IMG/VR virus record: IMGVR_UViG_3300025704_000035
Span: 1-53,719 of that record
DNA length: 53,719 nucleotides
Source: a virus
Lineage: Duplodnaviria > Caudoviricetes
Reading direction: 5' to 3' (one strand)
In this document: piece after piece, positions 1-53,719 of the stretch
Position numbering within the stretch: position 1 is the first letter of the stretch
Layout: each line of letters opens with the position of its first letter
The notes under the pieces: model-generated
What the model was told of the DNA's origin: nothing
The model's input: the letters and a program-made list of their open reading frames with translations, nothing else
Databases searched by the model: none
Translations under genes and position numbers: made by a program

Positions 1-367
1 GGGTCTCTTCCCAGTTCTCGTAAAACTCGAATCGGTCTGCATAATCTGAGGGCGACTCAAAGAAACCACCAACTAACGGGAGGTCTTGCTTACGGTAGTC
101 TTCGTCAGAAAGCATACGACCTGCAATATCAGTTGTCTGGCTACCAAATCGACCCAAGCCGCCAAGGAAATATTCATAAGCATATTGCATCTTATCTGGA
201 TTGATAGACATGGAACCGTCTCGGTACTTGTCACCCCCAGTAGCATCGTTGAGGAACTCAGCCGGAACAGTAAACATCTTGTCGGTTGATCTTCGAGAGT
301 TATAAGCATTGGCTCGCTCAACAAACAATGGGTTTTGCTCTATGTAGATATCACTGCCAAAGAAGTT
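1..367. repeat. Terminal direct repeat, left copy (circular overlap with 53353-53719)
   Basis: 367 bp align without gaps to the last 367 bp, with 9 substitutions. Confidence 0.97.
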
Positions 368-28259: not shown

Positions 28260-28290
28260 GAAGGAGGGGCTTTCACCCCCCCCTTTTTTT
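28260..28290 (-). terminator. Intrinsic terminator-like hairpin after the major capsid gene (possibly bidirectional)
   Basis: Minus strand GGGGGGG-TGAAAG-CCCCTCC then TTCTTT; a long T run follows the hairpin on the plus strand. Confidence 0.6.
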
Positions 28291-29198
28291 TATGCTGTTG
28301 TCCAGTTACCAGTAACTAAGCAATCAGGGTTGATTACTTTGTAGCCGTACACTTTCAAACCGCGAACCGCGTCGCCAAATGTGTCAGTTAAACGAACAGT
28401 TTCAGTGTTAGTGAACTGGCTCGCAAACGTGATACCTTTTGAGTGACCCGCAAGAACCTGAGTTCTCATGTCTGTAACAGTATCAGTTGAGGTAGTATCA
28501 ACATCCACCTGACCAAGCATGTTTGATTGATAAATTGTGAAACGATCAATCGTGCCTACTTGTCCGTTACGTAGAACGGAAGTGGAATCACCCATCATTT
28601 GGGCTTGACGAAGTTCAGACTGCTTGAGCAACGAAACATATGCAGGAGGAAGAACTAAGAAACGACCTTCTTCTGGAATGTTCTTCTCGTCAAGAGCAGT
28701 AGACATTGCAAGAATGTTGTCAAGGATGTTGTCTTTAGCCAAGTCAGCTACAGCTTGAGTAGTACCAGCGTCAGCGCCAACAGCGCCTAGAACGTCAGTT
28801 TCAATCGCAATACGCATTTGCTCTGCCGCGTCTGATGACGCTTCTTCTAACATGTTGATGTCAGCCTGAGCCGCAAGTACATCGTCAACCTTAAAGCTGT
28901 AGTATTTAGCTTTGTCGATATTTAGATTTACTGTAGACGTTTCAAGGTTCTGATTAGCAACAGTGCCAGCGTAATCGTTGATTGTTACTGTTGGTACTGT
29001 ACGTACTGTTACCTTGTCGCCCTGACCAGAAATTTCACCTTCATAATCAGTGTTAGAGATAGCAGGAAGTACACTGCTTGCATAAAATTTAGCCTGAAGA
29101 AGTTTTGAAAAAACCTCAGGTACAAAGCTTGCCTGAGTGGATGTGACCGGAGAGGCGGCAGTGCCTGCACCGGTTTGTGTATAAAAAGAAAAAGCCAT
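28290..29198 (-). CDS. Major capsid protein (HK97 fold)
   Basis: FVPEVFS..L, NTDYEGEI..GDKV.V, IPEEGRFLV, FGDAVRGLKVYGYKV motifs; follows the scaffold gene. Confidence 0.88.
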   Translation of the reverse strand: MAFSFYTQTGAGTAASPVTSTQASFVPEVFSKLLQAKFYASSVLPAISNTDYEGEISGQGDKVTVRTVPTVTINDYAGTVANQNLETSTVNLNIDKAKYYSFKVDDVLAAQADINMLEEASSDAAEQMRIAIETDVLGAVGADAGTTQAVADLAKDNILDNILAMSTALDEKNIPEEGRFLVLPPAYVSLLKQSELRQAQMMGDSTSVLRNGQVGTIDRFTIYQSNMLGQVDVDTTSTDTVTDMRTQVLAGHSKGITFASQFTNTETVRLTDTFGDAVRGLKVYGYKVINPDCLVTGNWTTA

Positions 29199-30186: not shown

Positions 30187-30462
30187 TTAGTCAATGGAGG
30201 TTGTTCGTTTCCGAGTCCTCAGTTGGTCTAATAGTGCTTTCGCACTGGTTTGAAGTTCAAGCATAAAGCGAAGCTCACTGAGTCGCCCTTGCTCAAACCT
30301 GAAATTTTTTTCGTCAGCTTGTTCCAGCTTTAGTTGTGCGTCGTTAAAACGGCATTGGAGGAGGTCTGTTACCCGCTTCCATTCCTCCCCCGCCGATAGG
30401 CGAAGGACTGCCTGCGCTTGCTCCTTGGAGCATTTGAGCTTGGATTGCTTGCTGTTGTTCAA
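30187..30462 (-). CDS. Small conserved head-module protein
   Basis: 91 aa; W..V and QGR motifs; overlaps the portal 3' end, start uncertain. Confidence 0.5.
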   Translation of the reverse strand: MNNSKQSKLKCSKEQAQAVLRLSAGEEWKRVTDLLQCRFNDAQLKLEQADEKNFRFEQGRLSELRFMLELQTSAKALLDQLRTRKRTTSID

Positions 30463-32335
30463 GAGCTAGTTGCTCCTCTGACTTAACAATTTCGTCAGGA
30501 TCAATATCCATACTCTTAGCTATATCGCGAAGAAGATGATTACGATCCACCAGTCCAGAATCCATGGGGTTTGAAACCAGCGACAGGAATTGCAACAAAC
30601 GCTGGCTTTGTACTTCTTTTTGAACAAGAGCTGTACTTCCTCTTGCAACAATCTTTAGGTCACCTTTAACGCTTTCATTAGAATTAAATTCCATATTCCA
30701 GTGATAAAGTGCCTTGATCATTGGCTCCATTAAGAAATCATCAACATTTTTAATGGTAGACTTAAGGGCAACGTTAGCCGCGCCCATTAACATAGACATG
30801 CCGGTGGCTGTCTTGTTAAGACTTTTTGACTGTTCGCCGTGCGTGTAGCTTGGAAGGCTAGTTGTTTCATCGGCAAAACGTCTGAATATTTCTACAATCT
30901 GATTAAGACCGTTAGCATTTGCTACTGGTTGATACCATCTAACAGCAGGCATACTGCCATCACCACCCTCGCGGAGGAATACACGCCAAGGATGAATGTC
31001 TGTAGGGTCTTCACCTGCCGCTAACAGATCAGTATTTACCTCAACCATCGGACCCGATGACAGTGCTAAATTGTCTAACCAGATTCTTGTTGCGGCATTC
31101 ATGGTGCCTTGGGAATCTCTCATCATTCTAGGTACGCCGGTACCCCAGAATTGATGCGGTGTTCTTTCGTAAGGGAAGACAAAGTACGGCATCTTGTAAC
31201 CCGATACAGGGTTTAGCATTAGCTTTATTACTTTGCCGTCACACATCCAAACACATGCACTATAATCGTCCGAAAGGTCTGAACCTTCTGGCAATTCAAT
31301 GTCATGCTCTTCAAGCTCATGTCCGTCAACAGTTCCCCAGTACTCTAAAACTTCAAACCGATTAGACTCTGAGTGATCGTTTATTCCAGCAATTCTTCTT
31401 CTTGTTCTTTCATGCTCTTCCTCAACGTGATTACCAGTCCTGTTGATCTTGAGTAGATACTTGATCATCGCGGAGTCAAATTGAGGACGGTCAGATAGCT
31501 CTCTAAACTGACGTCGTGTTAATACATGCCGGCGGAATAAGCCATCGCAATCCTCTAGCGAGGTGCAGTACGGGTCTGGGTACAGATCAAATATAGAAAC
31601 GCTTTCAACTTCTGGCGTTGCCTTCTCAATCTGAGAAAGGACGTGTGCCATTTCACCGGTTTCTGGATCCTGTACCTTTTGATATGACTGGCTTGTATCA
31701 ATCTTAACAGTTCCTGCCTTGACGGCACCCGAGCCAAAGATACAGCTTTCAAGAATAGATTCTTTGAGTTTCATTTCGGCATTGTTTTCTATTAGCTGAT
31801 CCATGATCGAAGTCGTCATTTTCTCAGCCGCTTCATTAGCCGCTTTCTGTTCTATTTCCTTAAACTCTTCTTCTAGCTCAGAAATGCGAGCCAAGACAAG
31901 ATCTTGATTCATGTTGGGATCCATCATTTGGGAAGCCATCATGATTTGTTCGGTAGCCTGTTCTCTTAGCTTGACCGCTTGTACAGGGTCTAGGTCTGCT
32001 ACGGGAGTGGGCTCACAGGCGAAAAATATATCGCCGTGCTGGAATAATAGGTCGATAATACGCGAATATGCCGCCATAACCTTGGTTCTTGTCAAGCCGA
32101 CAAAAACCTTTGAGCGAGCACCGGATTCGTTTAGACGTGCAAGTACATCGGGCTCATACAAGCCGTTGTATTGACGGAGATCTTTAAGCCACTCGTTTTC
32201 AGTTTCTTTTCGAGCGTCTTTGTATTCCTGATATATATGAGCTAGTCGTGTGCCAAGACTTTGAACCGAATGATCTTGCGTGCCATCGGATTCTTCTTCA
32301 GCTACAAATAGCTCTTCTTCATACTCTTCTATCAT
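30344..32335 (-). CDS. Portal protein
   Basis: 663 aa; RSKVFV..TR.K, YPDP, EYWG, KTATGMSMLM motifs; follows terL. Confidence 0.9.
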   Translation of the reverse strand: MIEEYEEELFVAEEESDGTQDHSVQSLGTRLAHIYQEYKDARKETENEWLKDLRQYNGLYEPDVLARLNESGARSKVFVGLTRTKVMAAYSRIIDLLFQHGDIFFACEPTPVADLDPVQAVKLREQATEQIMMASQMMDPNMNQDLVLARISELEEEFKEIEQKAANEAAEKMTTSIMDQLIENNAEMKLKESILESCIFGSGAVKAGTVKIDTSQSYQKVQDPETGEMAHVLSQIEKATPEVESVSIFDLYPDPYCTSLEDCDGLFRRHVLTRRQFRELSDRPQFDSAMIKYLLKINRTGNHVEEEHERTRRRIAGINDHSESNRFEVLEYWGTVDGHELEEHDIELPEGSDLSDDYSACVWMCDGKVIKLMLNPVSGYKMPYFVFPYERTPHQFWGTGVPRMMRDSQGTMNAATRIWLDNLALSSGPMVEVNTDLLAAGEDPTDIHPWRVFLREGGDGSMPAVRWYQPVANANGLNQIVEIFRRFADETTSLPSYTHGEQSKSLNKTATGMSMLMGAANVALKSTIKNVDDFLMEPMIKALYHWNMEFNSNESVKGDLKIVARGSTALVQKEVQSQRLLQFLSLVSNPMDSGLVDRNHLLRDIAKSMDIDPDEIVKSEEQLALEQQQAIQAQMLQGASAGSPSPIGGGGMEAGNRPPPMPF

Positions 32336-33918
32336 TAGTACCCTGCTACGGAGTCAAGAGTTGTAAAGCGTCGTTGTATCGTTCTACGCCGAGGTTTCGG
32401 CATTGAGGCAAGTCCGTGCAGGGCAATGGCAAATGCCATCACACGATCATCATAACATCCTTGCTGAGAATTAAAAACCCCTTTTTCATCAATAACATAC
32501 GTTCTTAATTCGTTAACTAACTCGATGTCAGCGACACCGGATTCGTTCTGTCTAATGAGGCTGGCAAGGTTGTCTACAATTAGAGGTTTTGTTTTTGACG
32601 TGGTCAGGAAACCACCCCTCTTTGTCATCTTATCTGAGTAGGCGCCATCAACAGAATGCTCAACAAACATATTGGGATACCTTAACTCCATTAATCTTCT
32701 TAACGTAGTTAGACCGTGGTTGTTTCTTTCTACCACAACATGGGCATCGTTATATCGCTTACCTATCTGGGATACTACATTTCCCCAATCCCATGGATCT
32801 ATATGACCATGCCAGCAAGCTACTTGACGACCTTGGGAGTCAAGAACTTGGGCGCAAGAATAATCGCCGTAAGATAGACCCTCAGCAACATCGACCCCAA
32901 TAACATAGGTATCATCTTTTGAGGGGGAGTGCCATTCTTTGTAAGGACCATAAGATCTTTCCTCGATATTGCCTCCAAGTATGTCCCCTTGAAAGTCTGG
33001 CGTATAACAATCGTCTTCACACACCGAGAGGTGCTTGTCTTCTACGAAACATCGACCGGATGTAAGGAACGCTTCCAGTGGGGTGCTAGGATATTCTTGT
33101 TTAAATAGATCTGTGCCGCCAAGTTCATCAAGCTTGCTTCGTCTAAATGCCAGCTGGGCATCGTCCAAACCAAATCTTTTCGCTAGAGCATACTCTTCCG
33201 GCGTAGCCTCAAAATATGGGCTGGGTTTTTTTCTGTAGTCGGGCATCCAAAACCAAGGAATAAAACAAGTCACCCACTCAGATTCACCGCGCAAGCTTTT
33301 CATCACAGAGTCATAGAACCATCCGCCCGCGCCGTTGGCTGTACTCTCTAGGATTACTTCAGATTTTTTTCCGCCCACCGTCTGGAGGAGACCGGCGGTG
33401 ATATCAGATCCCTGAGGGTAAAAGGCAACTTCCGAGCCATGGACGAAGCGGTTTGTTTGTCCTCGACCAGTCTGCGTAGACCGCGCAGTCCCAACTCGGT
33501 ATCTACTATTAAGCTCGTCGAAAACGAGAGTAGAAGCACTAGAAGAAGACAGAGGCGGCTTAAAGGCAGGATGAGGTATGTTGTCATAGAAGTAACGCAC
33601 CATATTGAAAATGGCGTTCGTAGATTCTGCCAGATGGGACAGTACGAATGCATTGGCGTTTCGATTTTGCGTTACCTTCCAAAAGTTTCTGCCCTGAGAA
33701 TAAGTGGAAATACCTGTTTGTCGTGCCTTAAGCACTAAAGCACGGACGTTATCTTGTTCTTTTAATTGCTTTTCTAGCATGTTGTGCAGATGCAACTGGG
33801 CACTGTTTAAAACAAAGGGGGTGGACTCACCTTCTTTATTAACTATCTTAAGGACATTCTTTGCATAGAGGGGAAAGTTACCCTTAAATTTTGCGGCTAC
33901 TTTTTCGATATCATTCAT
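32335..33918 (-). CDS. terL: Terminase large subunit
   Basis: Walker A LKARQTGIST, Walker B HGSEVAF, ESTANG; nuclease GVDVAEG..DYS and DDRVMA. Confidence 0.95.
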   Translation of the reverse strand: MNDIEKVAAKFKGNFPLYAKNVLKIVNKEGESTPFVLNSAQLHLHNMLEKQLKEQDNVRALVLKARQTGISTYSQGRNFWKVTQNRNANAFVLSHLAESTNAIFNMVRYFYDNIPHPAFKPPLSSSSASTLVFDELNSRYRVGTARSTQTGRGQTNRFVHGSEVAFYPQGSDITAGLLQTVGGKKSEVILESTANGAGGWFYDSVMKSLRGESEWVTCFIPWFWMPDYRKKPSPYFEATPEEYALAKRFGLDDAQLAFRRSKLDELGGTDLFKQEYPSTPLEAFLTSGRCFVEDKHLSVCEDDCYTPDFQGDILGGNIEERSYGPYKEWHSPSKDDTYVIGVDVAEGLSYGDYSCAQVLDSQGRQVACWHGHIDPWDWGNVVSQIGKRYNDAHVVVERNNHGLTTLRRLMELRYPNMFVEHSVDGAYSDKMTKRGGFLTTSKTKPLIVDNLASLIRQNESGVADIELVNELRTYVIDEKGVFNSQQGCYDDRVMAFAIALHGLASMPKPRRRTIQRRFTTLDSVAGY

Positions 33919-36466: not shown

Positions 36467-36496
36467 TTGACAGATTATTTTCTGCACCTGTATATT
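36467..36496 (+). promoter_or_regulatory. Sigma70-type promoter of the rightward operon
   Basis: TTGACA (36467-72), 18-bp spacer, TATATT (36491-96); AT-rich UP-like region upstream. Confidence 0.7.
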
Positions 36497-36499
36497 AGT

Positions 36500-36826
36500 T
36501 GGCAAGTGCTCAAACGGCACTTCGGATACGAGGTCTCCGACATGACCTGCCACCTTCGGGTGAACACGAAAGCTTCGGCGAGTAGTGGTCTTCAAAGCAC
36601 AGCGGTTGGGTGCGAGTCGGGACAGAGCCCCTGCCGCTCTTCAAAGGTGCACGGTTGGAGATAGTGAAAGCCAGAATGAGTTCTGAGCGAGTAGCGAGCC
36701 TCCTGCAAGGAACGCAATCAAACGACCGACTGGGTGGGCTACCTACCTAGGAAAGCTACGGCGAGTACGACCCAGTCGAGTTGATTTGATAGAGCCGCCA
36801 CGTTGGAGGTTCTACAAAATCAATTC
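36500..36826 (+). ncRNA. Candidate structured leader RNA, family unknown
   Basis: GC-rich, no convincing CDS; UUCG/UACG tetraloops; three GAAAGC..GCGAGUA modules; 9-bp stem 36727-35/36770-78; long hairpin 36778-36826. Confidence 0.65.
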
Positions 36827-36845
36827 TTACCCTGAGGAGGGCACC

Positions 36846-37019
36846 ATGGATATTCAAGTAGAAATAAAAAGCATTTACGGTCAAGAAAAGATCTACCCAC
36901 TATGCCTAGCAGGCGAGACATTCGCTCAGATAGCAGGCACCAAAACATTAACCACTGAGACTATCGCACTGGCTAAGCGCCTAGGCTATCAATTCATTAT
37001 TAAACAACGGGGGATCTGA
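36846..37019 (+). CDS. Small hypothetical protein
   Basis: MDIQVEIKSIYGQEKIYP..., directly after CCTGAGGAGG. Confidence 0.75.
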   Translation: MDIQVEIKSIYGQEKIYPLCLAGETFAQIAGTKTLTTETIALAKRLGYQFIIKQRGI

Positions 37020-37021
37020 TC

Positions 37022-37252
37022 ATGACTACACATAAAGAACGAGCGTTTAAGTTAGCGGATGAGATAGACGCACTGCATAGCAAACTAGAAGAGCATGTTG
37101 AAGATTTACGGCTCGAATGGGCAGACGATAAATTCGATGACGAGTACCCAATCTGGGACTCAGAAGATGCTCAATGCTACTTAGAGAAGGCGGTTGACTT
37201 AATCAAGCGCTACTACACGAACGAATCATTATTTAGGCGGCAGATCCCCTGA
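37022..37252 (+). CDS. Small acidic hypothetical protein
   Basis: 76-aa ORF with GGGGG SD-like sequence. Confidence 0.65.
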   Translation: MTTHKERAFKLADEIDALHSKLEEHVEDLRLEWADDKFDDEYPIWDSEDAQCYLEKAVDLIKRYYTNESLFRRQIP

Positions 37253-37271
37253 AAAGGGAAGCCTAAGCATA

Positions 37272-37332
37272 CTCAACTGATGAGGCTAGCGGGGGTTAGC
37301 CGAAACAGCCCTTCGGGGTTGTCTTGAGACCC
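37272..37332 (+). ncRNA. Type I hammerhead ribozyme HH1 (predicted cleavage after C37323, GUC)
   Basis: Stem I CUCAA/UUGAG; CUGAUGA; stem II GGCUAGC/GUUAGCC; GAAA; stem III CAGCCC-UUCG-GGGUUG; G-rich loop II can pair with 3' CCC. Confidence 0.93.
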
Positions 37333-37361
37333 ATATAATTAATCCTGAGGAGGATAACAAC

Positions 37362-38240
37362 ATGGCTAAATTTGAAGATATTTTTCAAGAAGTTACAGAC
37401 CGAATCATTGATGGTTTGGAAAATGCTGATGACTGGCGCAAGCCTTGGAAATCACTGTTCGATGGTTCAGTACCGCATAACGCATCTACTGGCAGACCAT
37501 ATAGCGGTGTGAATTTCCTTAACCTATCGTGGGCATCCAAGAAATGGGGTGCTTCTGGTTGGGTTACCTACAAGCAGGCGCAAGCCCTTGGCGGTAAGGT
37601 TCCCAGTAAAAGCGCATCAAACGGGGGCTGTGAGTATGTTTGGTTCATGGCTCGCAGTGTCTATAAAGATAAGCAGACTGGTGACGATAAAGTCGGCTTT
37701 ATAAACAAATGCTTCTCAGTCTGGAATGTTAACCAGATCGAATGGGAAGAAGGCAGTAAACCTTACAGAGAATACACCCCACCAGTATCTGGTACGGGTG
37801 CAGTCAATGTACTGGCTGAGAGCCTAGATATTGATCTGCAATATCAGGGTGATGTTGCATGCTTCATCCCTTCAGTAGATGTTATCAAGATGCCTTCTGC
37901 TGAGGCGTTCAAAACCCCTGAAGACCATGACGCCACACTGGCTCATGAGTTAGTGCACTGGACTGGTCATAAAGACCGACTCAACAGAAAGATCCTGAAC
38001 AGCAAGGGTGGTGAAGATTACGCCTTTGAGGAACTGGTCGCTGAGTTGGGTGCGGCTTTTGCAGGCTCCCTACTAGGTATTCCCTACGAGGGGCTACAGC
38101 ATGAGAAGTACATCAAGAGTTGGCTTAAGGCGTTAAAGAATGATCCTAAACATATCGTAAAGGCATCTGCTCAAGCGTCCAAAGCTGTTAACTATCTTAA
38201 TGATAACGGCTCCCTACAGATTGTAGACATAGCCGCATAG
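37362..38240 (+). CDS. ardC: ArdC-like antirestriction protein (ssDNA-binding domain plus zincin metallopeptidase)
   Basis: W.KPW, N..TGRPYSGVN, W.TYKQA..LGG, HELVHWTGH..RL.R, YAFEELVAELGAAF, YI.SWL..L. Confidence 0.9.
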   Translation: MAKFEDIFQEVTDRIIDGLENADDWRKPWKSLFDGSVPHNASTGRPYSGVNFLNLSWASKKWGASGWVTYKQAQALGGKVPSKSASNGGCEYVWFMARSVYKDKQTGDDKVGFINKCFSVWNVNQIEWEEGSKPYREYTPPVSGTGAVNVLAESLDIDLQYQGDVACFIPSVDVIKMPSAEAFKTPEDHDATLAHELVHWTGHKDRLNRKILNSKGGEDYAFEELVAELGAAFAGSLLGIPYEGLQHEKYIKSWLKALKNDPKHIVKASAQASKAVNYLNDNGSLQIVDIAA

Positions 38241-38241
38241 G

Positions 38242-38279
38242 TTGGGGGGTGTTGGGTTTTTCCCGCGCCCCAATTTTTT
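38242..38279 (+). terminator. Possible weak terminator hairpin after ardC
   Basis: TTGGGG...CCCCAA imperfect stem followed by a T run. Confidence 0.4.
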
Positions 38280-38295
38280 ACCTGAGGAGGTAATC

Positions 38296-38451
38296 ATGAC
38301 TGAAGATCAACTGATACAAAACGTTAAAAACGTAATCCTTGAGTGGGCGTTCGAGGAGATCGAAGAAAACCCTGACAGCGACATTACCTTGGAGGATCGG
38401 TACTGCCAGAACAGGGATTCAATACTTGACGTCCTGAAAGAAAAGCTCTAG
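38296..38451 (+). CDS. Small acidic hypothetical protein
   Basis: ATG after CCTGAGGAGG; stop TAG is part of HH2 stem I. Confidence 0.7.
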   Translation: MTEDQLIQNVKNVILEWAFEEIEENPDSDITLEDRYCQNRDSILDVLKEKL

Positions 38452-38511
38452 CTGATGAGTACTGGGTAGTGCCCAGTCGAAACACTGGTTCGCCAGTGTC
38501 CTAGATAACTA
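38447..38511 (+). ncRNA. Type I hammerhead ribozyme HH2 (cleavage after C38500, GUC)
   Basis: Stem I UCUAG/CUAGA; CUGAUGA; stem II G(U)ACUGGG/CCCAGUC; GAAA; stem III CACUGG-UUCG-CCAGUG; loop UAGU pairs with 3' ACUA. Confidence 0.93.
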
Positions 38512-38530
38512 ATCCTGAGGAGGATCTATC

Positions 38531-38938
38531 ATGGCTACATTGCAACAGAAAAACATCCACCCTGCACTGTCCCTGACTTGGGATTTATTGACAGACCCTG
38601 TGATCAACCCTACACGCAAAGCGAGACTGCGTCAGGATGCACGGCGCTATCAATACAGCGACCGCCTAGCTACTCGCATTGAACTCAATCAACACATTGA
38701 GTACTGCAAGACCGCAGACGGTTTTATTTATATCGAGAACTTCTCTCGAGACTGTGACAACTGCGAACGTACATGGGTAGAGAAGATACCCGCTCACATC
38801 ACAGCCCTCACGGTACACGAGAACCGACTGCAAAAAAACGCAGAGGGGATCACCTACTGCTCCCTGATCACTAAAGCGCAAGCAAACAAATTCAAACCCT
38901 CATTTCGTGATCGTAACGCAGAGCGTGGCTGGTACTAA
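38531..38938 (+). CDS. Hypothetical protein with CxxC
   Basis: 135 aa; SD hairpin upstream. Confidence 0.75.
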   Translation: MATLQQKNIHPALSLTWDLLTDPVINPTRKARLRQDARRYQYSDRLATRIELNQHIEYCKTADGFIYIENFSRDCDNCERTWVEKIPAHITALTVHENRLQKNAEGITYCSLITKAQANKFKPSFRDRNAERGWY

Positions 38939-38949
38939 CTTTATACTAA

Positions 38950-39012
38950 TCCAACTGATGAGACTAGATAGTTACTGGTCGAAACACCCCCTGTGGGTGT
39001 CTTGGAAAACTA
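38950..39012 (+). ncRNA. Type I hammerhead ribozyme HH3 (cleavage after C39001, GUC)
   Basis: Stem I UCCAA/UUGGA; CUGAUGA; stem II GACUAG/CUGGUC; GAAA; stem III CACCC/GGGUG; loop UAGUU pairs with 3' AACUA. Confidence 0.93.
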
Positions 39013-39034
39013 ATAAGACCTGAGGAGGTTAATC

Positions 39035-39577
39035 ATGAGCAATTCCAAATTTCACTTAGATAAAAATGCAATCCATTTGCTTAAAGAGTGCAACGAGTTG
39101 GCATGGCGTATGTCTGGTCGGGTCGAAGAACTTTTTAACGACTTGCATGGCACGTCAGTACCCCGCTCTGTTAGAGATGAGATTGAGATTCTTGAGCAGT
39201 ACCTAAACAAGGTAATCAATCAGACCACAGAAGCCCTAGACGCTGATCGTGAGATTGACGGTGAGTGTGTCCATGCTTACTGCCCTAACCCAACCAACAT
39301 AGAAGCCTATGGCTTAAAGGTTGAGAGGTATCTGCCCAGTAACTGGGAGGTATCAGATATAACACCTGACACTGTTTATATTCGTGGTCATAACACCTGC
39401 CGCACTGATGGAGAGCGTGAGTTCGAGCACTACTTACAGCCACGGCTAACGTCAGGCTTGATTCACTCTGTGCTTGCAACCGCTGAAGAAGTAGCGAAGC
39501 GTGCCCAAGGTGAGCGAGACAATCTTGAGGATGGGTGGGTTCAAACAAACGACATAAGGCACCAGTTACCGTGTTAA
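39035..39577 (+). CDS. Hypothetical protein
   Basis: 180 aa; SD hairpin upstream; bracketed by HH3 and HH4. Confidence 0.75.
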   Translation: MSNSKFHLDKNAIHLLKECNELAWRMSGRVEELFNDLHGTSVPRSVRDEIEILEQYLNKVINQTTEALDADREIDGECVHAYCPNPTNIEAYGLKVERYLPSNWEVSDITPDTVYIRGHNTCRTDGEREFEHYLQPRLTSGLIHSVLATAEEVAKRAQGERDNLEDGWVQTNDIRHQLPC

Positions 39578-39578
39578 A

Positions 39579-39640
39579 TCCAACTGATGATCGCAGTTAG
39601 TTACTGCGTGAAACACCCTTCGGGGTGTATTGGAAAACTA
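39579..39640 (+). ncRNA. Type I hammerhead ribozyme HH4 (cleavage after A39629, GUA)
   Basis: Stem I UCCAA/UUGGA; CUGAUGA; stem II CGCAGU/ACUGCG with U-U at the base; GAAA; stem III CACCC-UUCG-GGGUG; loop UAGUU pairs with 3' AACUA. Confidence 0.88.
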
Positions 39641-39658
39641 AACCTGAGGAGGTTGTAT

Positions 39659-39946
39659 ATGTATTTCATAACTAAACTAAACGGCGATCGAGTGCCCAGT
39701 CGATATGGTCTGGTGCATTACGTGAGTCTGTCCAGACTGTGTGACTATAGCTACCCTAACGTTAAGGATGGCATAAGCTATCTGGTATATAAGAGTGAAT
39801 TAGATCGCAGTGATGGCAAAGCCCATGGCGTCTATGTTACTGAGGGCGGAAAGTTGGTGCGCGATAAACGCAGATCAGCATTACGCAAAATACACGATCT
39901 ATTCAGGGGGCGCAGTATCGATGAAATTACCTACGCCCCACTTTGA
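39659..39946 (+). CDS. Hypothetical protein
   Basis: Start at MYFITKL after CCTGAGGAGG; the track's longer start lies inside HH4. Confidence 0.72.
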   Translation: MYFITKLNGDRVPSRYGLVHYVSLSRLCDYSYPNVKDGISYLVYKSELDRSDGKAHGVYVTEGGKLVRDKRRSALRKIHDLFRGRSIDEITYAPL

Positions 39947-40136
39947 CATTAACACTATGCTTCACCGCAAGGTGCGGTATGTCCTACAGAAACCTGACGC
40001 CCTGCATGATGCCCTGCTACAAATTGTAACTTTGGGCAAATCGGATTGGGATCAGCAAGAGTGGGACGCACTGGTTGCCGATATCGAATCATCCGACCTT
40101 ACAGTTGGTGAATACATCAAGCCCTACAGAACCTGA
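39921..40136 (+). CDS. Hypothetical protein
   Basis: MKLPTPHF...; stop TGA lies inside the next CCTGAGGAGG. Confidence 0.6.
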   Translation: MKLPTPHFDINTMLHRKVRYVLQKPDALHDALLQIVTLGKSDWDQQEWDALVADIESSDLTVGEYIKPYRT

Positions 40137-40147
40137 GGAGGTTAACC

Positions 40148-40390
40148 ATGGCTTATTACATTAGCAAGCTAGACCCTATAGATGGATCAGTATCACCGTT
40201 CGCTAGAGTAGTCAAACGATTATGTGATGCAAAACATCTAGCTGACGATGAGGTGTGTGCGGTATTCAAAAACCGCAGAGACTTCTCTGAAAAGTGGATC
40301 TACAAAACCTATGTGTCGCAGAACGGTAAACTTAAACCCGTGACAAGACATGACATCCCGAAACAAATCGGAAATCTGTTTTCTCTCTAG
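40148..40390 (+). CDS. Hypothetical protein
   Basis: 80 aa; stop TAG is part of HH5 stem I. Confidence 0.72.
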   Translation: MAYYISKLDPIDGSVSPFARVVKRLCDAKHLADDEVCAVFKNRRDFSEKWIYKTYVSQNGKLKPVTRHDIPKQIGNLFSL

Positions 40391-40445
40391 CTGATGAGCA
40401 CTGGATGGTTACCAGTCGAAACGCCGTGAGGCGTCCTAGAAAACC
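40386..40445 (+). ncRNA. Type I hammerhead ribozyme HH5 (cleavage after C40435, GUC)
   Basis: Stem I UCUAG/CUAGA; CUGAUGA; stem II G(C)ACUGG/CCAGUC; GAAA; stem III CGCC-GUGA-GGCG; loop GGUU pairs with 3' AACC. Confidence 0.93.
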
Positions 40446-40487
40446 GTTACAATTGCGTGTATATTAATTTCCTGAGGAGGATACATT

Positions 40488-40793
40488 ATGAAACAAGCAC
40501 ACTTACACCTTATTCAATGGGGTTTAGATCAGGGCTACATCATCGAGGTAGACATCGAGGGTGAGGCTGAGTATCGAGGCAAAAGCTACAAAGAAGCAAA
40601 AGATGCTAGCGAAGCGGGTGAGACAGGCTGTATATACCTAATTACTGGCACGGGTGATACAGATTATGCGTGGTTTGGATATCTTCACGACTACGACCAG
40701 AAGCCCGATGAAAAGATTTACGACTATGGCATTTGTGCCGTATCTGAATCGTGGCAGAAAGCCTACGACCAACACTGCTCTCAAGCCGCATAA
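40488..40793 (+). CDS. Hypothetical protein
   Basis: 101 aa; SD hairpin upstream. Confidence 0.75.
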   Translation: MKQAHLHLIQWGLDQGYIIEVDIEGEAEYRGKSYKEAKDASEAGETGCIYLITGTGDTDYAWFGYLHDYDQKPDEKIYDYGICAVSESWQKAYDQHCSQAA

Positions 40794-40820
40794 CCACCCC
40801 CACAATAAGTAACCACCATA

Positions 40821-40843
40821 AAGCCACCTTCGGGTGGTTTTTT
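40821..40843 (+). terminator. Intrinsic terminator
   Basis: AAGCCACC-TTCG-GGTGGTTT followed by a T run. Confidence 0.8.
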
Positions 40844-40888
40844 AGTGCTTATTTAATTATCAAAAACCAATATCCTGAGGAGGATTTT

Positions 40889-41224
40889 ATGAGTTTATAT
40901 TTAGTAAAAAGTGAAGTACGCGATGGTGGTTATGAATACCATGACAAGTTTATCCTGCTAGCAAGTAGCGGCGGAATATCGCTCGAACTACCTCAAAACA
41001 TCAATGCAATTTTGACGGCATGGGAGTTTGGGTTGACTGTCAAACATGTTGAAGAGTCAGGTGATGAGGTTTGGGCTGACTGTCGGCTGGTTTATTGCAA
41101 CACCTGCGGAACCATATCAAATGAAAACTACAACGTCATTAAAGAATACCTGAACGTGATTAATCTTGAGTACATTTTAGGTGATGTCGAATATGGCGAT
41201 GAGCGTGATCAGGAGGTGGCGTAA
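40889..41224 (+). CDS. Hypothetical protein
   Basis: Start MSLYLVK after CCTGAGGAGG. Confidence 0.72.
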   Translation: MSLYLVKSEVRDGGYEYHDKFILLASSGGISLELPQNINAILTAWEFGLTVKHVEESGDEVWADCRLVYCNTCGTISNENYNVIKEYLNVINLEYILGDVEYGDERDQEVA

Positions 41225-41391
41225 TGGATAACCCATTTGCAGATATCGCCCAGTGGGAGCGCTACTGGGATATGAGCGACCTTGAACGTGTCCGTGAGGA
41301 TGAGCAGGAGCAGAAAAAGAAAGAAGCGACCGAGCAAAAATGGGCTAATCGCTTTAAGTTAGGTATTCAAGACGAATGCGAACAATACTAG
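41224..41391 (+). CDS. 55-aa hypothetical protein (below the ORF-track cutoff)
   Basis: MDNPFADIAQWERYWDMSDL...; TAATG coupling and AGGAGG SD. Confidence 0.65.
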   Translation: MDNPFADIAQWERYWDMSDLERVREDEQEQKKKEATEQKWANRFKLGIQDECEQY

Positions 41392-41399
41392 GAGGTGCT

Positions 41400-41588
41400 A
41401 TGCCTATATATCAAGTAACAACTAAAGAGGTCTGCCTTAACACCTATGAGGTGGCGGCTAGATCCAAGGAAGATGCTATCAGCTCTTATTATGAGCAGTT
41501 GAACTCGCGTCAAATAAAAAGCGTTAGCAGTGATGAGAGTGTTATTTCAACACTTGAAGTATTTCCAACTGATGAGTTGTCGAGGTAG
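41400..41588 (+). CDS. Small hypothetical protein; last codons overlap HH6
   Basis: MPIYQVTTKE... with AGGAGG SD; PTDELSR* is encoded by the hammerhead core. Confidence 0.65.
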   Translation: MPIYQVTTKEVCLNTYEVAARSKEDAISSYYEQLNSRQIKSVSSDESVISTLEVFPTDELSR

Positions 41589-41662
41589 TCCCTCGATCGA
41601 AAGTCTAAGTACACAATAGGTAATCTTTTTTACCCTTTGTGTATTTGACTCTTGGATAACTA
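41564..41662 (+). ncRNA. Type I hammerhead ribozyme HH6 with extended stem III (cleavage after C41651, CUC)
   Basis: Stem I UCCAA/UUGGA; CUGAUGA; stem II GUCGAGG/CCUCGAU; GAAA; stem III GUC/GAC plus AAGUACACAA/UUGUGUAUUU plus GGUAA/UUACC; loop UAGU pairs with 3' ACUA. Confidence 0.85.
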
Positions 41663-41682
41663 AAAAACCTGAGGAGGTTTAT

Positions 41683-42642: not shown

Positions 42643-42736
42643 AGGTGACGGCTCACCTGAGGAGGGTATAGGCACAGGGAATACAGTGCCGAGCCGCCGC
42701 CCCTATCATAACCCTACAGTACCCACGGAGTAAAGA

Positions 42737-45412: not shown

Positions 45413-47242
45413 TTAATCCTTTGAATAGTTAATGTAATATCTTGGTCTGCCGCCTCTTCTGTCTTTGTATTGACAGGTTTCGTTATCAAACTCAAAGCCA
45501 ACACGACCCTCATACATACCGTTTCTGTTTTTCAGTATTTCTAAGTAGGTGTCCCATTGCTTTGTGTACTTTTCGTCTGGCTCTTCACCTAGCATCTCTG
45601 CCTGCTCAATTGCCTCAGACTTTCTTTTGTTCTTCCACACAGAGATAAACCCATCAGCTAAATCTGTGATTGAGCCTGAGCCCTTAACATCATATTTATT
45701 TGGAGCGGAATACTCCGACTCGCCCTTTCGAACGTGAGTAACAATAAAAATTGTGACGGGAAACGAAAGCTTAAAGTTGACTAGCTTTTCAATGAATCTT
45801 TGCTGACCTTCATAATCATCCTGCCTAACCATATTTGTTAAGCTATCAACGATAAAAACATTAATGCCATAACGCCTGTACGCATACTCAAAGCACGCCA
45901 TTAAATCTTCTGGTTTGGGGGTGAGCTTATCCACGAATAGCCATAAGTTCGGAGCCATCCATTCAAGAAGTTTTGACCTGTATGGCTTTGGAGGGTTAGC
46001 TGACCCTGCCGACTGACGTAACATTCGACCCATGGTAGCCTTGGGGGTCATCTCCATTGATGCAATTAAAACCTTCTGATCCTGCTCTACAGCATTGAGC
46101 GCCAACTGATTAAGCCACATAGATTTACCATGCCCATTGATACCTGCAACACCCCACAACTCCTGAGGTCTAAACCTAATATCCTCTTCATCTAGCTTTG
46201 CCCAACCGCTACCGAATCCCTGCTCGTCATTGGCACGGTTATCAAAAAAGTCATCTATGTCTGTTTCAAAATCAAGGACTGCTCGAAGGGTTTCAGGATC
46301 TTTCCATCTTGCCTCTTCATAAGCGCAATTGAGCATCCATTTAGCCTGCTCGTATCCTTCTTTCTTTAACAGATCATTAATATCTTTTGTTGGCAGAGTG
46401 ACCCGATAGCATCGGTCACCAAACCTGTTCATGATTTCTTCTGCGGCTAGCTCACCCTGCTCATCCATATCAGTGGCAATTATTATTTCTTCGAATCGGG
46501 AAAGGTTTTCATATTCATGAGCAATCCACTTGGTTTGCTTAGCGCCCTTACCGCCTCCCATTGGCACACTTAAAGCTGGATAGCCCAACTCCGAACAAGC
46601 TATAGCATCCCACTCACCTTCGGTAATCCATACTTTGCGGCAATCTGCGGGCATTGTTTGCCAGCCAAAAAGTATAGGTTTTAGATCTTTTTGCGTGCTT
46701 GGGTTTCCATCGTGATCGACTGGCTTGGTTTTAAGAAATACCTCTTTGCCGCTGGGGTCGTAATAATTAAATACAACATCCTTACCTCCACGACCGTCTG
46801 TCTCATATATCTTGTGGCGGAAACATATCTCCCCTACATCTTTGAAGCCTCTCTGCTCCATATGTTTATGCAAGGCTTCTCCGCTTACTTGTGGTGGTGG
46901 CTTTGGTTTGGTGTAATTCTTTTTTTCCGCCGTTGCTATTTTTTTTGCGGGACTTCTATCCCTTATGGCGTATGTTTTTTTAGCCCAATCCATCGCTTCA
47001 GTGAGCGAGTAGCCATTACGATACTGTATAAGGTCGAGTAGATCCCCGCCCTCTCCAGTAGCAAAGTCCATCCACTTTCCTGATTGATCACCTGTAAGAT
47101 AGATAGACATAGACCTACCCTTCTCACCCTGTATAGAGCCTACCTTGTAACAGCCTGACTCCATCTTTCCCTCTGGATATAACTCGTGGCACACCGATGC
47201 GGCGTGACTAGCGAGCTCACTACTTAAATCTTTAACATTCAT
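45413..47242 (-). CDS. Primase-helicase (TOPRIM plus SF4 helicase, T7 gp4/Twinkle-like)
   Basis: ITEGEWDA, DMDEQG, KDINDLL; Walker A GINGHGKS; VDSL; VTHVRK; KGSG.I.DLAD; KNRNG. Confidence 0.92.
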   Translation of the reverse strand: MNVKDLSSELASHAASVCHELYPEGKMESGCYKVGSIQGEKGRSMSIYLTGDQSGKWMDFATGEGGDLLDLIQYRNGYSLTEAMDWAKKTYAIRDRSPAKKIATAEKKNYTKPKPPPQVSGEALHKHMEQRGFKDVGEICFRHKIYETDGRGGKDVVFNYYDPSGKEVFLKTKPVDHDGNPSTQKDLKPILFGWQTMPADCRKVWITEGEWDAIACSELGYPALSVPMGGGKGAKQTKWIAHEYENLSRFEEIIIATDMDEQGELAAEEIMNRFGDRCYRVTLPTKDINDLLKKEGYEQAKWMLNCAYEEARWKDPETLRAVLDFETDIDDFFDNRANDEQGFGSGWAKLDEEDIRFRPQELWGVAGINGHGKSMWLNQLALNAVEQDQKVLIASMEMTPKATMGRMLRQSAGSANPPKPYRSKLLEWMAPNLWLFVDKLTPKPEDLMACFEYAYRRYGINVFIVDSLTNMVRQDDYEGQQRFIEKLVNFKLSFPVTIFIVTHVRKGESEYSAPNKYDVKGSGSITDLADGFISVWKNKRKSEAIEQAEMLGEEPDEKYTKQWDTYLEILKNRNGMYEGRVGFEFDNETCQYKDRRGGRPRYYINYSKD

Positions 47243-51435: not shown

Positions 51436-52377
51436 ATGAGTATGACGTTTAAAGAAGTTGCAGAGATGTATGTGCAACAACCGACAAAAAAGTATGCGCG
51501 TAAGCAGAAGCATTGCTTGCAGATAGTTGGCAAGATTTGCGAAAAAATTGGCAATGAACCTGTTGCTAAGTTTCAGCGCAAGCGCCCTGTCCTTGAGTAT
51601 GTGACAGCGGTTAGGGCACAGCCGTCAACTAGGCGTGCTGGTAAGTTGGTAAGTAATGGGTATGTAAATAGCCACATTGTTTTCCTTAGAGCAATTTTGG
51701 TTTTTGCAAGGGATGAGCTTGAGATTATTGATCGAGTTCCTTTGATTAAAACCTTAACGGAAAAGAAGCGTGACACATATCTTACGCCGGAACAGGTTCG
51801 TAATCTCATGCGTTGGTTGGATGAGTTGCGAGCAGACATGGTGGAATTTGCAGTTAATACAGGGCTGAGAAATAGCAATGTTCGATTATTAAAGTGGTCG
51901 GATCTTGCGGATGATTTATCAGCACTGTCTGTTAAGGCTGAAGATTCTAAGAACGGTGAAGCTACAGCGATCCCTTTAAATCCGGATGCGCGTCGTGTGT
52001 TGAGAAGACGTAAGTCCAAGTGTAGAAGTTTAGAGGATCGTTATCCTTATTTAAAAGGCAAGATAGATTATGTTTTTGCTAAGGAATCGAATCGCCGTGC
52101 AGTGAATGGTACGCCGTATGCAGACTGTAAGGCTGTGTCTGGTACGAACTGGCGTAAAGCGTGTCGTCAGGCAGGACTTCCAGATGATGTTGTGTTTCAT
52201 ACAATGAGGCATACATTTGCAAGCTGGCATTTACAGAGTGGAACGAGCGAGTCAACACTGCAAGAATTGGGTAATTGGCAAAGCGAGCGTTCAATGAAAA
52301 GGTATGGTCATCTGTCGATGAAATTTAAGAAAGAGGCGGCTGGCAATATCAGTGGATTATTGAGGGGTAATCTTTAA
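51436..52377 (+). CDS. int: Tyrosine integrase
   Basis: TGLR, SKNG, FHTMRHTFASW, LGNW, RYGHL catalytic residues; attP immediately downstream. Confidence 0.93.
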   Translation: MSMTFKEVAEMYVQQPTKKYARKQKHCLQIVGKICEKIGNEPVAKFQRKRPVLEYVTAVRAQPSTRRAGKLVSNGYVNSHIVFLRAILVFARDELEIIDRVPLIKTLTEKKRDTYLTPEQVRNLMRWLDELRADMVEFAVNTGLRNSNVRLLKWSDLADDLSALSVKAEDSKNGEATAIPLNPDARRVLRRRKSKCRSLEDRYPYLKGKIDYVFAKESNRRAVNGTPYADCKAVSGTNWRKACRQAGLPDDVVFHTMRHTFASWHLQSGTSESTLQELGNWQSERSMKRYGHLSMKFKKEAAGNISGLLRGNL

Positions 52378-53050: not shown

Positions 53051-53719
53051 CTACTTCCCCTCAGCCTTTCGGTATGCCTTGTTAAAGATATCAAAGATCT
53101 TGTTTTCATTAACTTCAAGCTCTTCAAGTAACTTTCTTCTTTTCTCCTCTCCTAATGAGCCGGCACCGTAGTTCTGTTTCTCAACCATTTTTCTTGTTTT
53201 AGAGATCCTTCTAAGGTCTCTGTTTGCCAGCTCGTAAAGATTCTTACCGTTATACTTGGGGTTAAGTAGCGGGATGAAATCTTTAAACTCTGTCTGAAGT
53301 CTAGCCACTTCCGTCACGTCTGTAGCTTCTTTAAATCTAGTTACAATTTTACGGGTCTCTTCCCAGTTCTCGTAAAACTCGAATCGGTCTGCATAATCTG
53401 AGGGCGACTCAAAGAAACCACCAACTAACGGGAGGTCTTGCTTACGGTAGTCTTCATCCGAAAGCATACGACCTGCAATATCAGTTGTCTGGCTACCAAA
53501 TCGACCCAAGCCGCCAAGGAAATACTCATAAGCATATTGCATCTTATCTGGATTGATAGATATGGATCCATCTCGGTACTTATCACCCCCAGTAGCATCG
53601 TTGAGGAACTCAGCCGGAACAGTAAACATCTTGTCGGTTGATCTTCGAGAGTTATAAGCATTGGCTCGGTCAACAAACAACGGGTTTTGCTCTATGTAGA
53701 TATCACTGCCAAAGAAGTT
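53051..53719 (-). CDS. C-terminal part of the giant polyvalent protein (continues from 1-8932)
   Basis: Same frame as 1-8932 through the terminal overlap; stop at 53051. Confidence 0.88.
   Translation of the reverse strand, partial: NFFGSDIYIEQNPLFVDRANAYNSRRSTDKMFTVPAEFLNDATGGDKYRDGSISINPDKMQYAYEYFLGGLGRFGSQTTDIAGRMLSDEDYRKQDLPLVGGFFESPSDYADRFEFYENWEETRKIVTRFKEATDVTEVARLQTEFKDFIPLLNPKYNGKNLYELANRDLRRISKTRKMVEKQNYGAGSLGEEKRRKLLEELEVNENKIFDIFNKAYRKAEGK
53353..53719. repeat. Terminal direct repeat, right copy
   Basis: Matches 1-367 with 9 substitutions. Confidence 0.97.

Follow-up and report, generated by a model that had tools for sequence, protein, structure and literature searches.

Six type I hammerhead ribozymes were found within 4.4 kb on the plus strand of the IMG/VR virus record IMGVR_UViG_3300025704_000035 (Duplodnaviria; Caudoviricetes), whose 53,719 bases were analysed in full and are called the window in the following, and each of them lies shortly upstream of a start codon that is led by a Shine-Dalgarno (SD) sequence. 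We propose that self-cleavage of these ribozymes probably turns a phage polycistron into mono- and di-cistronic mRNAs and insulates their translation and decay. This is the best reading because the elements carry a full type I core, lie on the coding strand where they separate a stop codon from the next ribosome binding site (RBS), and show compensatory changes among their relatives. The gene directly 3' of the first hammerhead encodes an ArdC-like anti-restriction protein (292 aa, 37362-38240, plus strand), and the genes of the surrounding module share a conserved hairpin that contains the SD sequence.

Six type I hammerheads on one strand

The window was scanned with a loose descriptor, in which CWGANGA is followed in turn by GAAA, a stem III (3 bp or more), and U-H, and in which stem I has 4 bp or more. 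Exactly six sites were returned on the plus strand and none on the minus strand, with predicted cuts after positions 37323, 38500, 39001, 39629, 40435, and 41651. They are the same six sense-strand elements, with the same cuts, that had been named in the original prediction, which was made by a model from the letters and their open reading frames (ORFs). At all six sites the elements follow each other in the type I order, namely stem I, CUGAUGA, stem II, GAAA, stem III, U-H, and stem I'. When 200 dinucleotide-preserving shuffles were scanned on both strands with the same descriptor, a mean of 0.315 sites per window and a maximum of 2 were found, and 59 of the 200 contained at least one site. 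The six sites of the window, which share one strand and span 4.4 kb, thus far exceed what chance would give. The plus strand contains nine CTGATGA words, six of which are part of the hammerheads.

The copies, numbered HH1 to HH6 from 5' to 3', all contain the core positions C3U4G5A6N7G8A9 and G12A13A14 as well as the A15.1-U16.1 pair, and the cleavage-site residue H17 is never G, the site being UC in five copies and UA in HH4. Base pair 10.1-11.1 is G-C in five copies and U.U in HH4, while stem II of HH2, HH5, and HH6 includes a bulge of 1-2 nt 3' of G10.1. Stem I falls into three sequence groups, UCCAA in three copies, UCUAG in two, and CUCAA in one. When each element was folded by itself, the three-way junction was the minimum-free-energy fold of HH1, HH3, and HH4 and the centroid fold of HH2, and nearly so for HH5.

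HH1 (37272-37334; stem I CUCAA/UUGAG; cut after C37323), HH2 (38447-38511; cut after C38500), and HH3 (38950-39012; cut after C39001) score 75.2, 82.5, and 87.8 bits, respectively, with the covariance model R1, which is described below. HH4 (39579-39640; 84.3 bits) is a variant with a GUA site and a predicted cut after A39629, in which U10.1.U11.1 replaces the conserved G10.1-C11.1 pair. HH5 (40386-40446; cut after C40435) reaches 75.5 bits, and HH6 (41564-41662; cut after C41651), which has a long stem III and stands outside the seed of the model, reaches 35.2 bits.

Covariation among relatives and a loop II pseudoknot

A joint pattern of the hammerhead core and the module RBS motif matched 14 stretches in viral contigs. 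Covariance model R1, for which only HH1-5 served as the seed, recovered HH6; from the window and 13 related loci taken together, it yielded 46 matches (E <= 1e-4). In scans of whole related records, seven R1 copies each were counted in G001, G002, and G004, six in G003, one in G005, four in G007, two in G008, three in G009, and none in G010, and the 11.2-kb fragment G006 contained nine copies, all within 4.2 kb. A survey of related phage contigs, as the original prediction had called for, therefore gave one to nine copies per record in G001-G009.

The covariation alignment comprised 78 matches, representing 67 distinct copies, to which the following counts refer. Standard pairs occupy 96.0% of the base-pair cells, and changes on both sides were observed at 20 of the 22 pairs. 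In a control with the partners slid by 1-3 columns, 31-40% were paired, and the observed covariation score was reached by none of 500 shuffles. Pairing amounts to 100% in stem I, 99.4% in stem II, and 98.7% in stem III, with both-side changes at 15 of the 16 pairs of these helices, which bears out the earlier claim that the differing stem sequences keep pairing. The A15.1-U16.1 pair (columns 52-140) is present in all 66 scorable distinct copies, and the 10.1-11.1 pair is G-C in 65 of 67. Core position 7 is occupied by U, C, A, or G, and the other core positions are kept save in a few copies. Any base is allowed at core position 7 in the hammerhead consensus. For HH6, compensatory stem II changes were seen in its orthologues in G001-G004.

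The covariation analysis also uncovered a pseudoknot that was absent from the original description. Five loop II nucleotides pair with five nucleotides that lie 3' of stem I after a 1-nt spacer; the pseudoknot is paired in 84.5% (87.1% in a smaller set), and compensatory changes occur at all five pairs, examples being UAGUU/AACUA, UGGUU/AACCG or AACCA, GGG/CCC, and AGAU/AUCU. Within the window, loop II pairs with the 3' tail as GGG with CCC in HH1, UAGU with ACUA in HH2, UAGUU with AACUA in HH3, UUAGUU with AACUAA in HH4, and AUGGUU with AACCGU in HH5, the last being compensatory relative to HH4. Since R1 does not encode this pseudoknot, its conservation is independent evidence. By covariation, it represents the tertiary contact through which stems I and II are held parallel. 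According to Perreault et al. (2011, PMC3088659), about 40% of hammerheads have such a pseudoknot, and when one was disrupted, cleavage at 0.5 mM Mg2+ slowed by a factor of 20 to more than 100.

A generic hammerhead pattern matched at least 117 viral stretches, and R1, which was then applied to 78 loci, gave at least 120 further matches in these 78 other viral loci. Judged from sequence, the pseudoknotted type I subtype is widespread. Via the generic pattern only, further arrays of the same subtype were noticed in loci L170 (eight copies), L168 (seven), L199 (seven), and L139 (four), in which the hammerhead is located 15-30 nt 5' of a lineage-uniform SD and ATG (GGAGGGCATATG, GGAGACAATCATG, ATAGGAGAAAATTATG).

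Placement between stop codons and ribosome binding sites

Each of the six hammerheads is located on the coding strand, either in an intergenic spacer or partly over the 3' end of the preceding ORF, and their starts range from 25 nt before to 19 nt after the upstream stop codon. HH1 begins 19 nt past the stop of a 76-aa ORF. Stem I of HH2 contains the TAG stop (38449-38451) of a 51-aa ORF and that of HH5 the TAG stop (40388-40390) of an 80-aa ORF, while HH6 shares 25 nt with the end of an ORF for 62 aa (41400-41588), the stop codon of which falls into loop II. The distances from cut to ATG, 38 (ahead of the ArdC-like gene), 30, 33, 29, 52, and 31 nt for HH1 to HH6, reproduced the earlier values exactly, and each of these ATG codons is SD-led. 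Taking the window together with G001-G005, an SD-led ORF starts 28-52 nt past the cut for 34 of 34 hammerheads. The six copies separate blocks of one to four genes.

The segment 40437-40868 looks like a moron-like insertion, as it comprises a promoter-like site, a 101-aa gene (40488-40793), and a hairpin followed by U6. It is missing in G001 and G004, where the HH5 orthologue is directly followed by the 111/116-aa gene. An insertion of this kind would explain the 52-nt leader behind HH5.

Across 34 ArdC-anchored loci, all 59 model matches are found on the same strand as ArdC. In the 14 loci with an ArdC of at least 70% identity, a hammerhead is located directly upstream in six and directly downstream in seven; in the remaining one, hammerheads occur only 0.7-1.6 kb downstream. 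The sequences further suggest that the link between hammerhead and ArdC reaches beyond the clade of the window. Among 20 loci with a distant ArdC (34-37% identity), five (L123-L127, e.g., L127:5494-5562) carry a shorter, different hammerhead-like element, CUGACGAG...CGAAA...GUC, upstream of ArdC, which scores 26-34 bits with R1.

An extra cassette, consisting of a hammerhead and a gene for 79-82 aa, is present in G001, G002, and G004 and is flanked by two near-identical hammerheads. Other differences among the relatives likewise consist of whole units.

We also considered the ribozyme as a supplier of stop codons in three frames ahead of the cut. Stops were present in 142 of 195 frames, compared with 103.6 +/- 5.5 after shuffling. 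In frame 0 the stop is given by the UGA of the core, whereas the count for the two remaining frames (78 of 130) is near chance, for which reason the idea was dropped.

A hairpin around the Shine-Dalgarno sequence

Beyond the original description, the SD sequences of the module were found to be structured. The RBS motif CCTGAGGAGG occurs in ten copies before start codons, all of them in the module. Written as CCUGAGGAGG, the ten copies extend over 36829-41679 and are seated in a conserved hairpin, NNCCU[GAGG]AGGN'N', in which the SD makes up two loop bases and the 3' arm. An eleventh copy of the motif was noted at 42657 (hairpin 42654-42667), after which there is no start codon.

The SD hairpins of the window and its relatives form a set of 51 distinct 20-mers with 132 occurrences. 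Of the free flanking pairs, the first can form in 45 of the 51, with five pair types, and the second in 35; none of 500 shuffles reached the covariation score. In locus L099, all nine copies read AAUCU[GAGG]AGAUU, which is a compensatory change within the otherwise invariant stem. A hairpin at the RNA level is favoured because U.G pairs occur on the sense strand.

Six of the ten plus-strand hairpins are situated between a hammerhead and its gene: hairpin 2 (37342-37355) between HH1 and ArdC, hairpin 4 (38512-38525) between HH2 and a 135-aa ORF, hairpin 5 (39017-39030) between HH3 and a 180-aa ORF, hairpin 6 (39641-39654) between HH4 and a 95-aa ORF, hairpin 8 (40469-40482) between HH5 and the 101-aa ORF, and hairpin 10 (41666-41679) between HH6 and a 150-aa ORF. 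The others have no hammerhead upstream, namely hairpin 1 (36829-36842) before a 57-aa ORF (ATG 36846), hairpin 3 (38279-38292) before the 51-aa ORF, hairpin 7 (40130-40143) before the 80-aa ORF, and hairpin 9 (40872-40885), which precedes a 111-aa ORF and is itself preceded by a terminator-like hairpin. Because it also stands before these four hammerhead-less genes, the SD hairpin belongs to the module rather than to the ribozyme. It could act as a translational operator, as a nuclease target, or as a device that presents the SD.

Two further ideas about the RBS were rejected. Cleavage does not appear to free a sequestered SD, as GGAGG is predicted to be unpaired with a probability of 0.40 at all six sites, whether the RNA is cut or uncut. 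Likewise, the RBS word CUGAGGA fits CUGANGA and gave an 18.8-bit type II alignment with cmscan, but its 21-nt spacer offers no stem I and the downstream part is coding, so that it was not accepted as a second core.

Proposed processing of the module transcript

We propose that a sigma-70-like promoter at the head of the module (TTGACA-18-TATATT, 36467-36496, plus strand; a consensus match only, at 11 of 12 hexamer positions) would give rise to one or a few long RNAs. Each hammerhead would fold into a three-way junction, the active shape of which would be held by the 5-bp stem I and a pseudoknot of 3-6 bp, and would then cleave itself 3' of H17. Owing to the type I topology, the upstream mRNA would retain the ribozyme body at its 3' end and would consequently carry two stable GC-rich hairpins and a 2',3'-cyclic phosphate there. 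Judging from the established chemistry of such ends, they should hinder 3' exonucleases and polyadenylation. The downstream mRNA would have a 5'-OH end, and its leader would be short (29-52 nt) and uniform, with a strong SD placed in the small conserved hairpin; the resulting mRNAs would be translated and degraded independently of neighbouring sequence. A benefit may be that newly gained small genes can join the array without disturbing their neighbours.

That the module is expressed early is something we only infer, on the basis of the sigma-70-like promoter, the ArdC gene, and the many small ORFans. The same holds for the argument that the 5'-OH ends would matter for RNase E.

With clearly less confidence, we surmise that the unit of hammerhead, leader, and SD hairpin might be a portable natural insulator, and that the shared SD hairpin might serve as a common operator. 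As an insulator, it would permit new small genes, for instance anti-defence candidates such as ArdC, to be plugged into one promoter-driven array with predictable expression. As an operator, the hairpin would allow one RNA-binding protein or nuclease to switch all of the cut mRNAs together.

Observations against the proposal and rival explanations

Several observations weigh against the proposed self-cleavage of a polycistron and have to be set against the evidence given above. First, Rfam gave no hit in the whole window at gathering thresholds. The comparison with Rfam hammerhead models, which the original prediction had suggested, gave matches only below the thresholds: RF00163 Hammerhead_1 (cut-off 34 bits) matched HH3 with 23.8 bits, its best match in the window, HH2 with 20.6 bits, and HH5 with 20.1 bits, and RF03152 RAGATH-1-hammerhead (cut-off 56.3 bits) matched HH3 with 26.5 bits and HH1 with 21.4 bits, but HH4 and HH6 were reported by no Rfam model at E <= 10. 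At E <= 5, nothing other than sub-threshold hammerhead matches was obtained in the whole window, and the Rfam scan detected no twister, pistol, or hatchet ribozymes in it. Both models have the same catalytic core and type I order as the window copies, and RF03152 in addition resembles them in its short open stem I. The RAGATH-1 consensus contains one stem II pair and an upstream hairpin, whereas the window copies possess a stem II of about 6 bp and a pseudoknot with the 3' tail. As the gathering thresholds miss six of six copies, routine annotation will overlook such arrays.

Second, the counts for the nested stems lean towards the model structure because the alignment was fitted to the model. 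Third, some copies in relatives carry core mutations, TTGATAAG, CCGATGA, and CCGAAGA among them; with TTGACGA included, substitutions in the strictly conserved core were noted at L100:6898-6974, L105:3033-3111, L100:9338-9417, L099:5646-5725, and L107:1368-1443. These copies are probably decayed or inactive, or else may be tolerated variants. Fourth, the activity of HH4 is uncertain, since published screening, in the passage concerned, rejects a mispair such as that of HH4 unless activity has been shown (PMC3088659); its U.U variant is common to the orthologous copies in G002 and G003. Fifth, HH6 folded in isolation reaches its minimum free energy in a competing hairpin instead of the hammerhead junction.

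Besides, the module may not be one transcript, because a terminator-like hairpin (CCACC-UUCG-GGUGG followed by U6, 40824-40843, plus strand) and a weak promoter-like site (40437-40465, plus strand) are found inside it. Of the ten genes with an SD hairpin, four lack an upstream hammerhead, which implies that cleavage is dispensable for some cistrons. The earlier claim that the phage cuts a polycistron is therefore supported as far as the core, the coding-strand placement, and the compensatory changes are concerned, but not with regard to an uninterrupted transcript.

Some of these observations would fit cleavage that is conditional, an explanation that we regard as unlikely, although it survives better than the other rivals. 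Here the hammerheads would be switches, governed by translation of the upstream ORF, by ions, or by a factor, which time or balance expression, with some copies being slow. Three of the six upstream ORFs stop inside the ribozyme (stem I of HH2 and HH5, loop II of HH6), where a terminating ribosome would unfold it; the competing hairpin of HH6 and the HH4 mispair that is kept in two related records point in the same direction, and regulated cleavage was raised for slower phage variants in a passage of Perreault et al. (PMC3088659). However, no ligand-binding or sensor domain is visible, and the overlap of ORFs with ribozymes may only reflect the compactness of phage genomes. Moreover, five of the six copies have a canonical core and a pseudoknot, a combination that was fast at physiological Mg2+ in the tested hammerheads of that work (PMC3088659). 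Conditional cleavage refines the proposal of polycistron processing more than it excludes it.

A reading of the hammerheads as selfish or relic repeats, spread by duplication or recombination and without a role in gene expression, is in our opinion very improbable. It would account for the near-identical stem I groups within one genome, for cassette gains and losses that are bounded by hammerheads, and for the core mutations in some relatives. Nevertheless, all six cores in the window are intact, stems and pseudoknot are kept by compensation across the 67 distinct copies, and the orientation along the gene strand (59 of 59) and the distance of 28-52 nt to an SD-led ATG (34 of 34) are maintained. 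Neutral repeats would not preserve a catalytic fold and a fixed RBS register.

Nor do we find it credible that the hammerhead together with the SD hairpin, about 75 nt in length, is in the first place a homology patch for swapping cassettes at the DNA level, to which RNA activity is secondary. The cassette flanked by near-identical hammerheads in G001, G002, and G004, and the differences in whole units, would be expected from such a patch, but recombination requires identity rather than a catalytic core or compensatory pairs, and the sense-strand G.U pairs in the stems and in the SD hairpin indicate that selection acts on the RNA. A simpler view of cassette turnover is that it is a by-product of the repeats.

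Ends that consist of 5'-OH and 2',3'-cyclic phosphate fit the substrates of RtcB. The possibility that paired cleavages release gene-length RNAs, which an RtcB-type ligase makes into circular or spliced RNAs, was named by Perreault et al. and suits this end chemistry, yet we consider it hardly tenable, as these authors state in the same passages that spliced or circular products were sought and none were obtained (data not shown; PMC3088659), and as the phage has no RtcB homologue (no match to PF01139).

Comparison with known systems

The original prediction knew of no characterised system with this layout, yet both the layout and the proposed mechanism are already known from the clustered prophage hammerheads of Perreault et al. 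(2011, PMC3088659). In the passages drawn upon here, prophages with multiple hammerheads flanking individual genes are described, for which the conversion of long transcripts into single-gene mRNAs was proposed; three tandem (triple) arrangements cleave in vitro, the trio that flanks ardA in A. tumefaciens cleaves in E. coli, and in Legionella ardA is located directly 3' of a hammerhead (PMC3088659). As far as these passages go, the window resembles the prophage clusters in its same-strand hammerheads around single genes or short blocks, in the anti-restriction gene that is served, and in a pseudoknot of the stem I-stem II region that takes the place of loop-loop contacts. The differences are the number of copies, with tested triples there versus six here and up to nine in 4.2 kb in relatives, and the gene, which is ardA there and ArdC-like here. 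The window copies are of type I, their stem I has a constant length of 5 bp, and their pseudoknot is formed with the 3' tail; the comparison was made by text passages. No later study of phage hammerhead arrays was found in the literature, but hammerhead and twister ribozymes have been associated with phage genes and with each other in later work, and for D. vulgaris the in vivo detection of cleavage by a hammerhead has been reported.

The engineered insulator RiboJ, consisting of the sTRSV hammerhead and a 23-nt hairpin, increases the amount of protein 2-10 fold and that of mRNA about 2 fold in E. coli, as stated by Clifton et al. (2018, PMC6206723). By this description it shares with the window units a hammerhead 5' of the RBS, the removal of upstream context, and a short standard leader with an RBS-adjacent hairpin (PMC6206723). 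In contrast, RiboJ is placed between promoter and gene, whereas the hammerheads of the window lie between cistrons; likewise, the RiboJ hairpin precedes the RBS, whereas in the window the SD is part of the hairpin itself (loop and 3' arm). The window units may thus be called RiboJ-like by resemblance of design only, and not by descent.

A polycistronic phage transcript that is cut in intergenic spacers is familiar from bacteriophage T7, the early mRNA of which is processed by RNase III into individual mRNAs with a protective 3' hairpin. RNase III is a host protein that acts on double-stranded sites and leaves 5'-phosphate and 3'-OH ends. In contrast, the RNA of the window would cut itself and would leave 5'-OH and 2',3'-cyclic phosphate ends.

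Viral hammerheads reported in 2026 (PMC13725137) are similar, in the parts of the paper considered, in being of type I with a long helix III directly 5' of a viral ORF, and in a self-cleavage that is tied to translation of the downstream ORF. Those ribozymes belong to RNA viruses of eukaryotes, in which translation is initiated independently of a cap and without an SD, and they are stated to lack the usual contacts between helices I and II (PMC13725137). The role of bacterial and phage hammerheads is still called open in reviews and in a passage of the same 2026 paper (PMC13725137).

To these systems the window adds the denser array, the pseudoknotted type I subtype that stays below the Rfam thresholds, the link to ArdC, and the co-conserved SD hairpin. 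With six to nine ribozymes per operon, a fixed register to a structured RBS, and an adjoining anti-restriction gene, the clade is a dense and well-conserved test case, and the covariation data provide ready mutant designs for tests of insulation and mRNA stability.

The phage record and the setting of the module

The window is best explained as a temperate tailed phage whose genome is complete or nearly so; the phage was identified through PHROG matches to integrase, terminase, portal, and capsid genes. It is the whole virus record, with a CheckV completeness estimate of 100%. On the minus strand, a giant ORF of at least 2977 aa (2-8932) runs off the start of the record, and a second ORF (53051-53719) is open at its end. 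Since ORFs are open at both ends, it is likely, notwithstanding the CheckV estimate, that the ends of the record fall within a very large gene for a virion or tail protein.

By PHROG matches, the minus strand encodes the major head protein (28290-29198), the portal/adaptor (30344-32335), the large terminase (32335-33918), tail fibre proteins, and a primase/helicase (45413-47242), and the plus strand encodes an integrase (51436-52377) as well as Sak-like and RecE-like recombination genes. A close cultured phage was not found by megablast of 15 kb, and blastn with HH3 plus its leader gave no match. The large terminase and the capsid protein share at most 31-43% amino-acid identity with cultured phages of varied hosts. 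A search of genome contigs with the hammerhead and RBS pattern returned 70 loci, none of which matches R1, and these are accordingly regarded as chance or unrelated occurrences.

Apart from the ArdC-like gene, the module holds about 15 small ORFan genes. Of 16 module proteins that were scanned, 14 have no Pfam or PHROGs family, and the 180-aa and 135-aa proteins gave no usable Atlas match. The two with a family are ArdC and the product of the last gene, a small HTH regulator. The ArdC-like protein matches ArdcN (PF08401, E = 2.8e-19) and MPTase-PolyVal (PF18818, E = 4.1e-38) in Pfam, and phrog_7245, an anti-restriction protein, with E = 1.5e-58.

The promoter sequence at the head of the module recurs 379-417 nt upstream of the first module gene in G001, G002, and G003. 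In the window, about 340 nt (36503-36845) separate the promoter-like site from the first SD-hairpin gene, and the sole ORF in this interval encodes 40 aa (36542-36664). The hammerhead module forms a separate plus-strand block at about 36.5-43.5 kb, between the packaging and the replication genes, and the sign of the GC skew flips across it.

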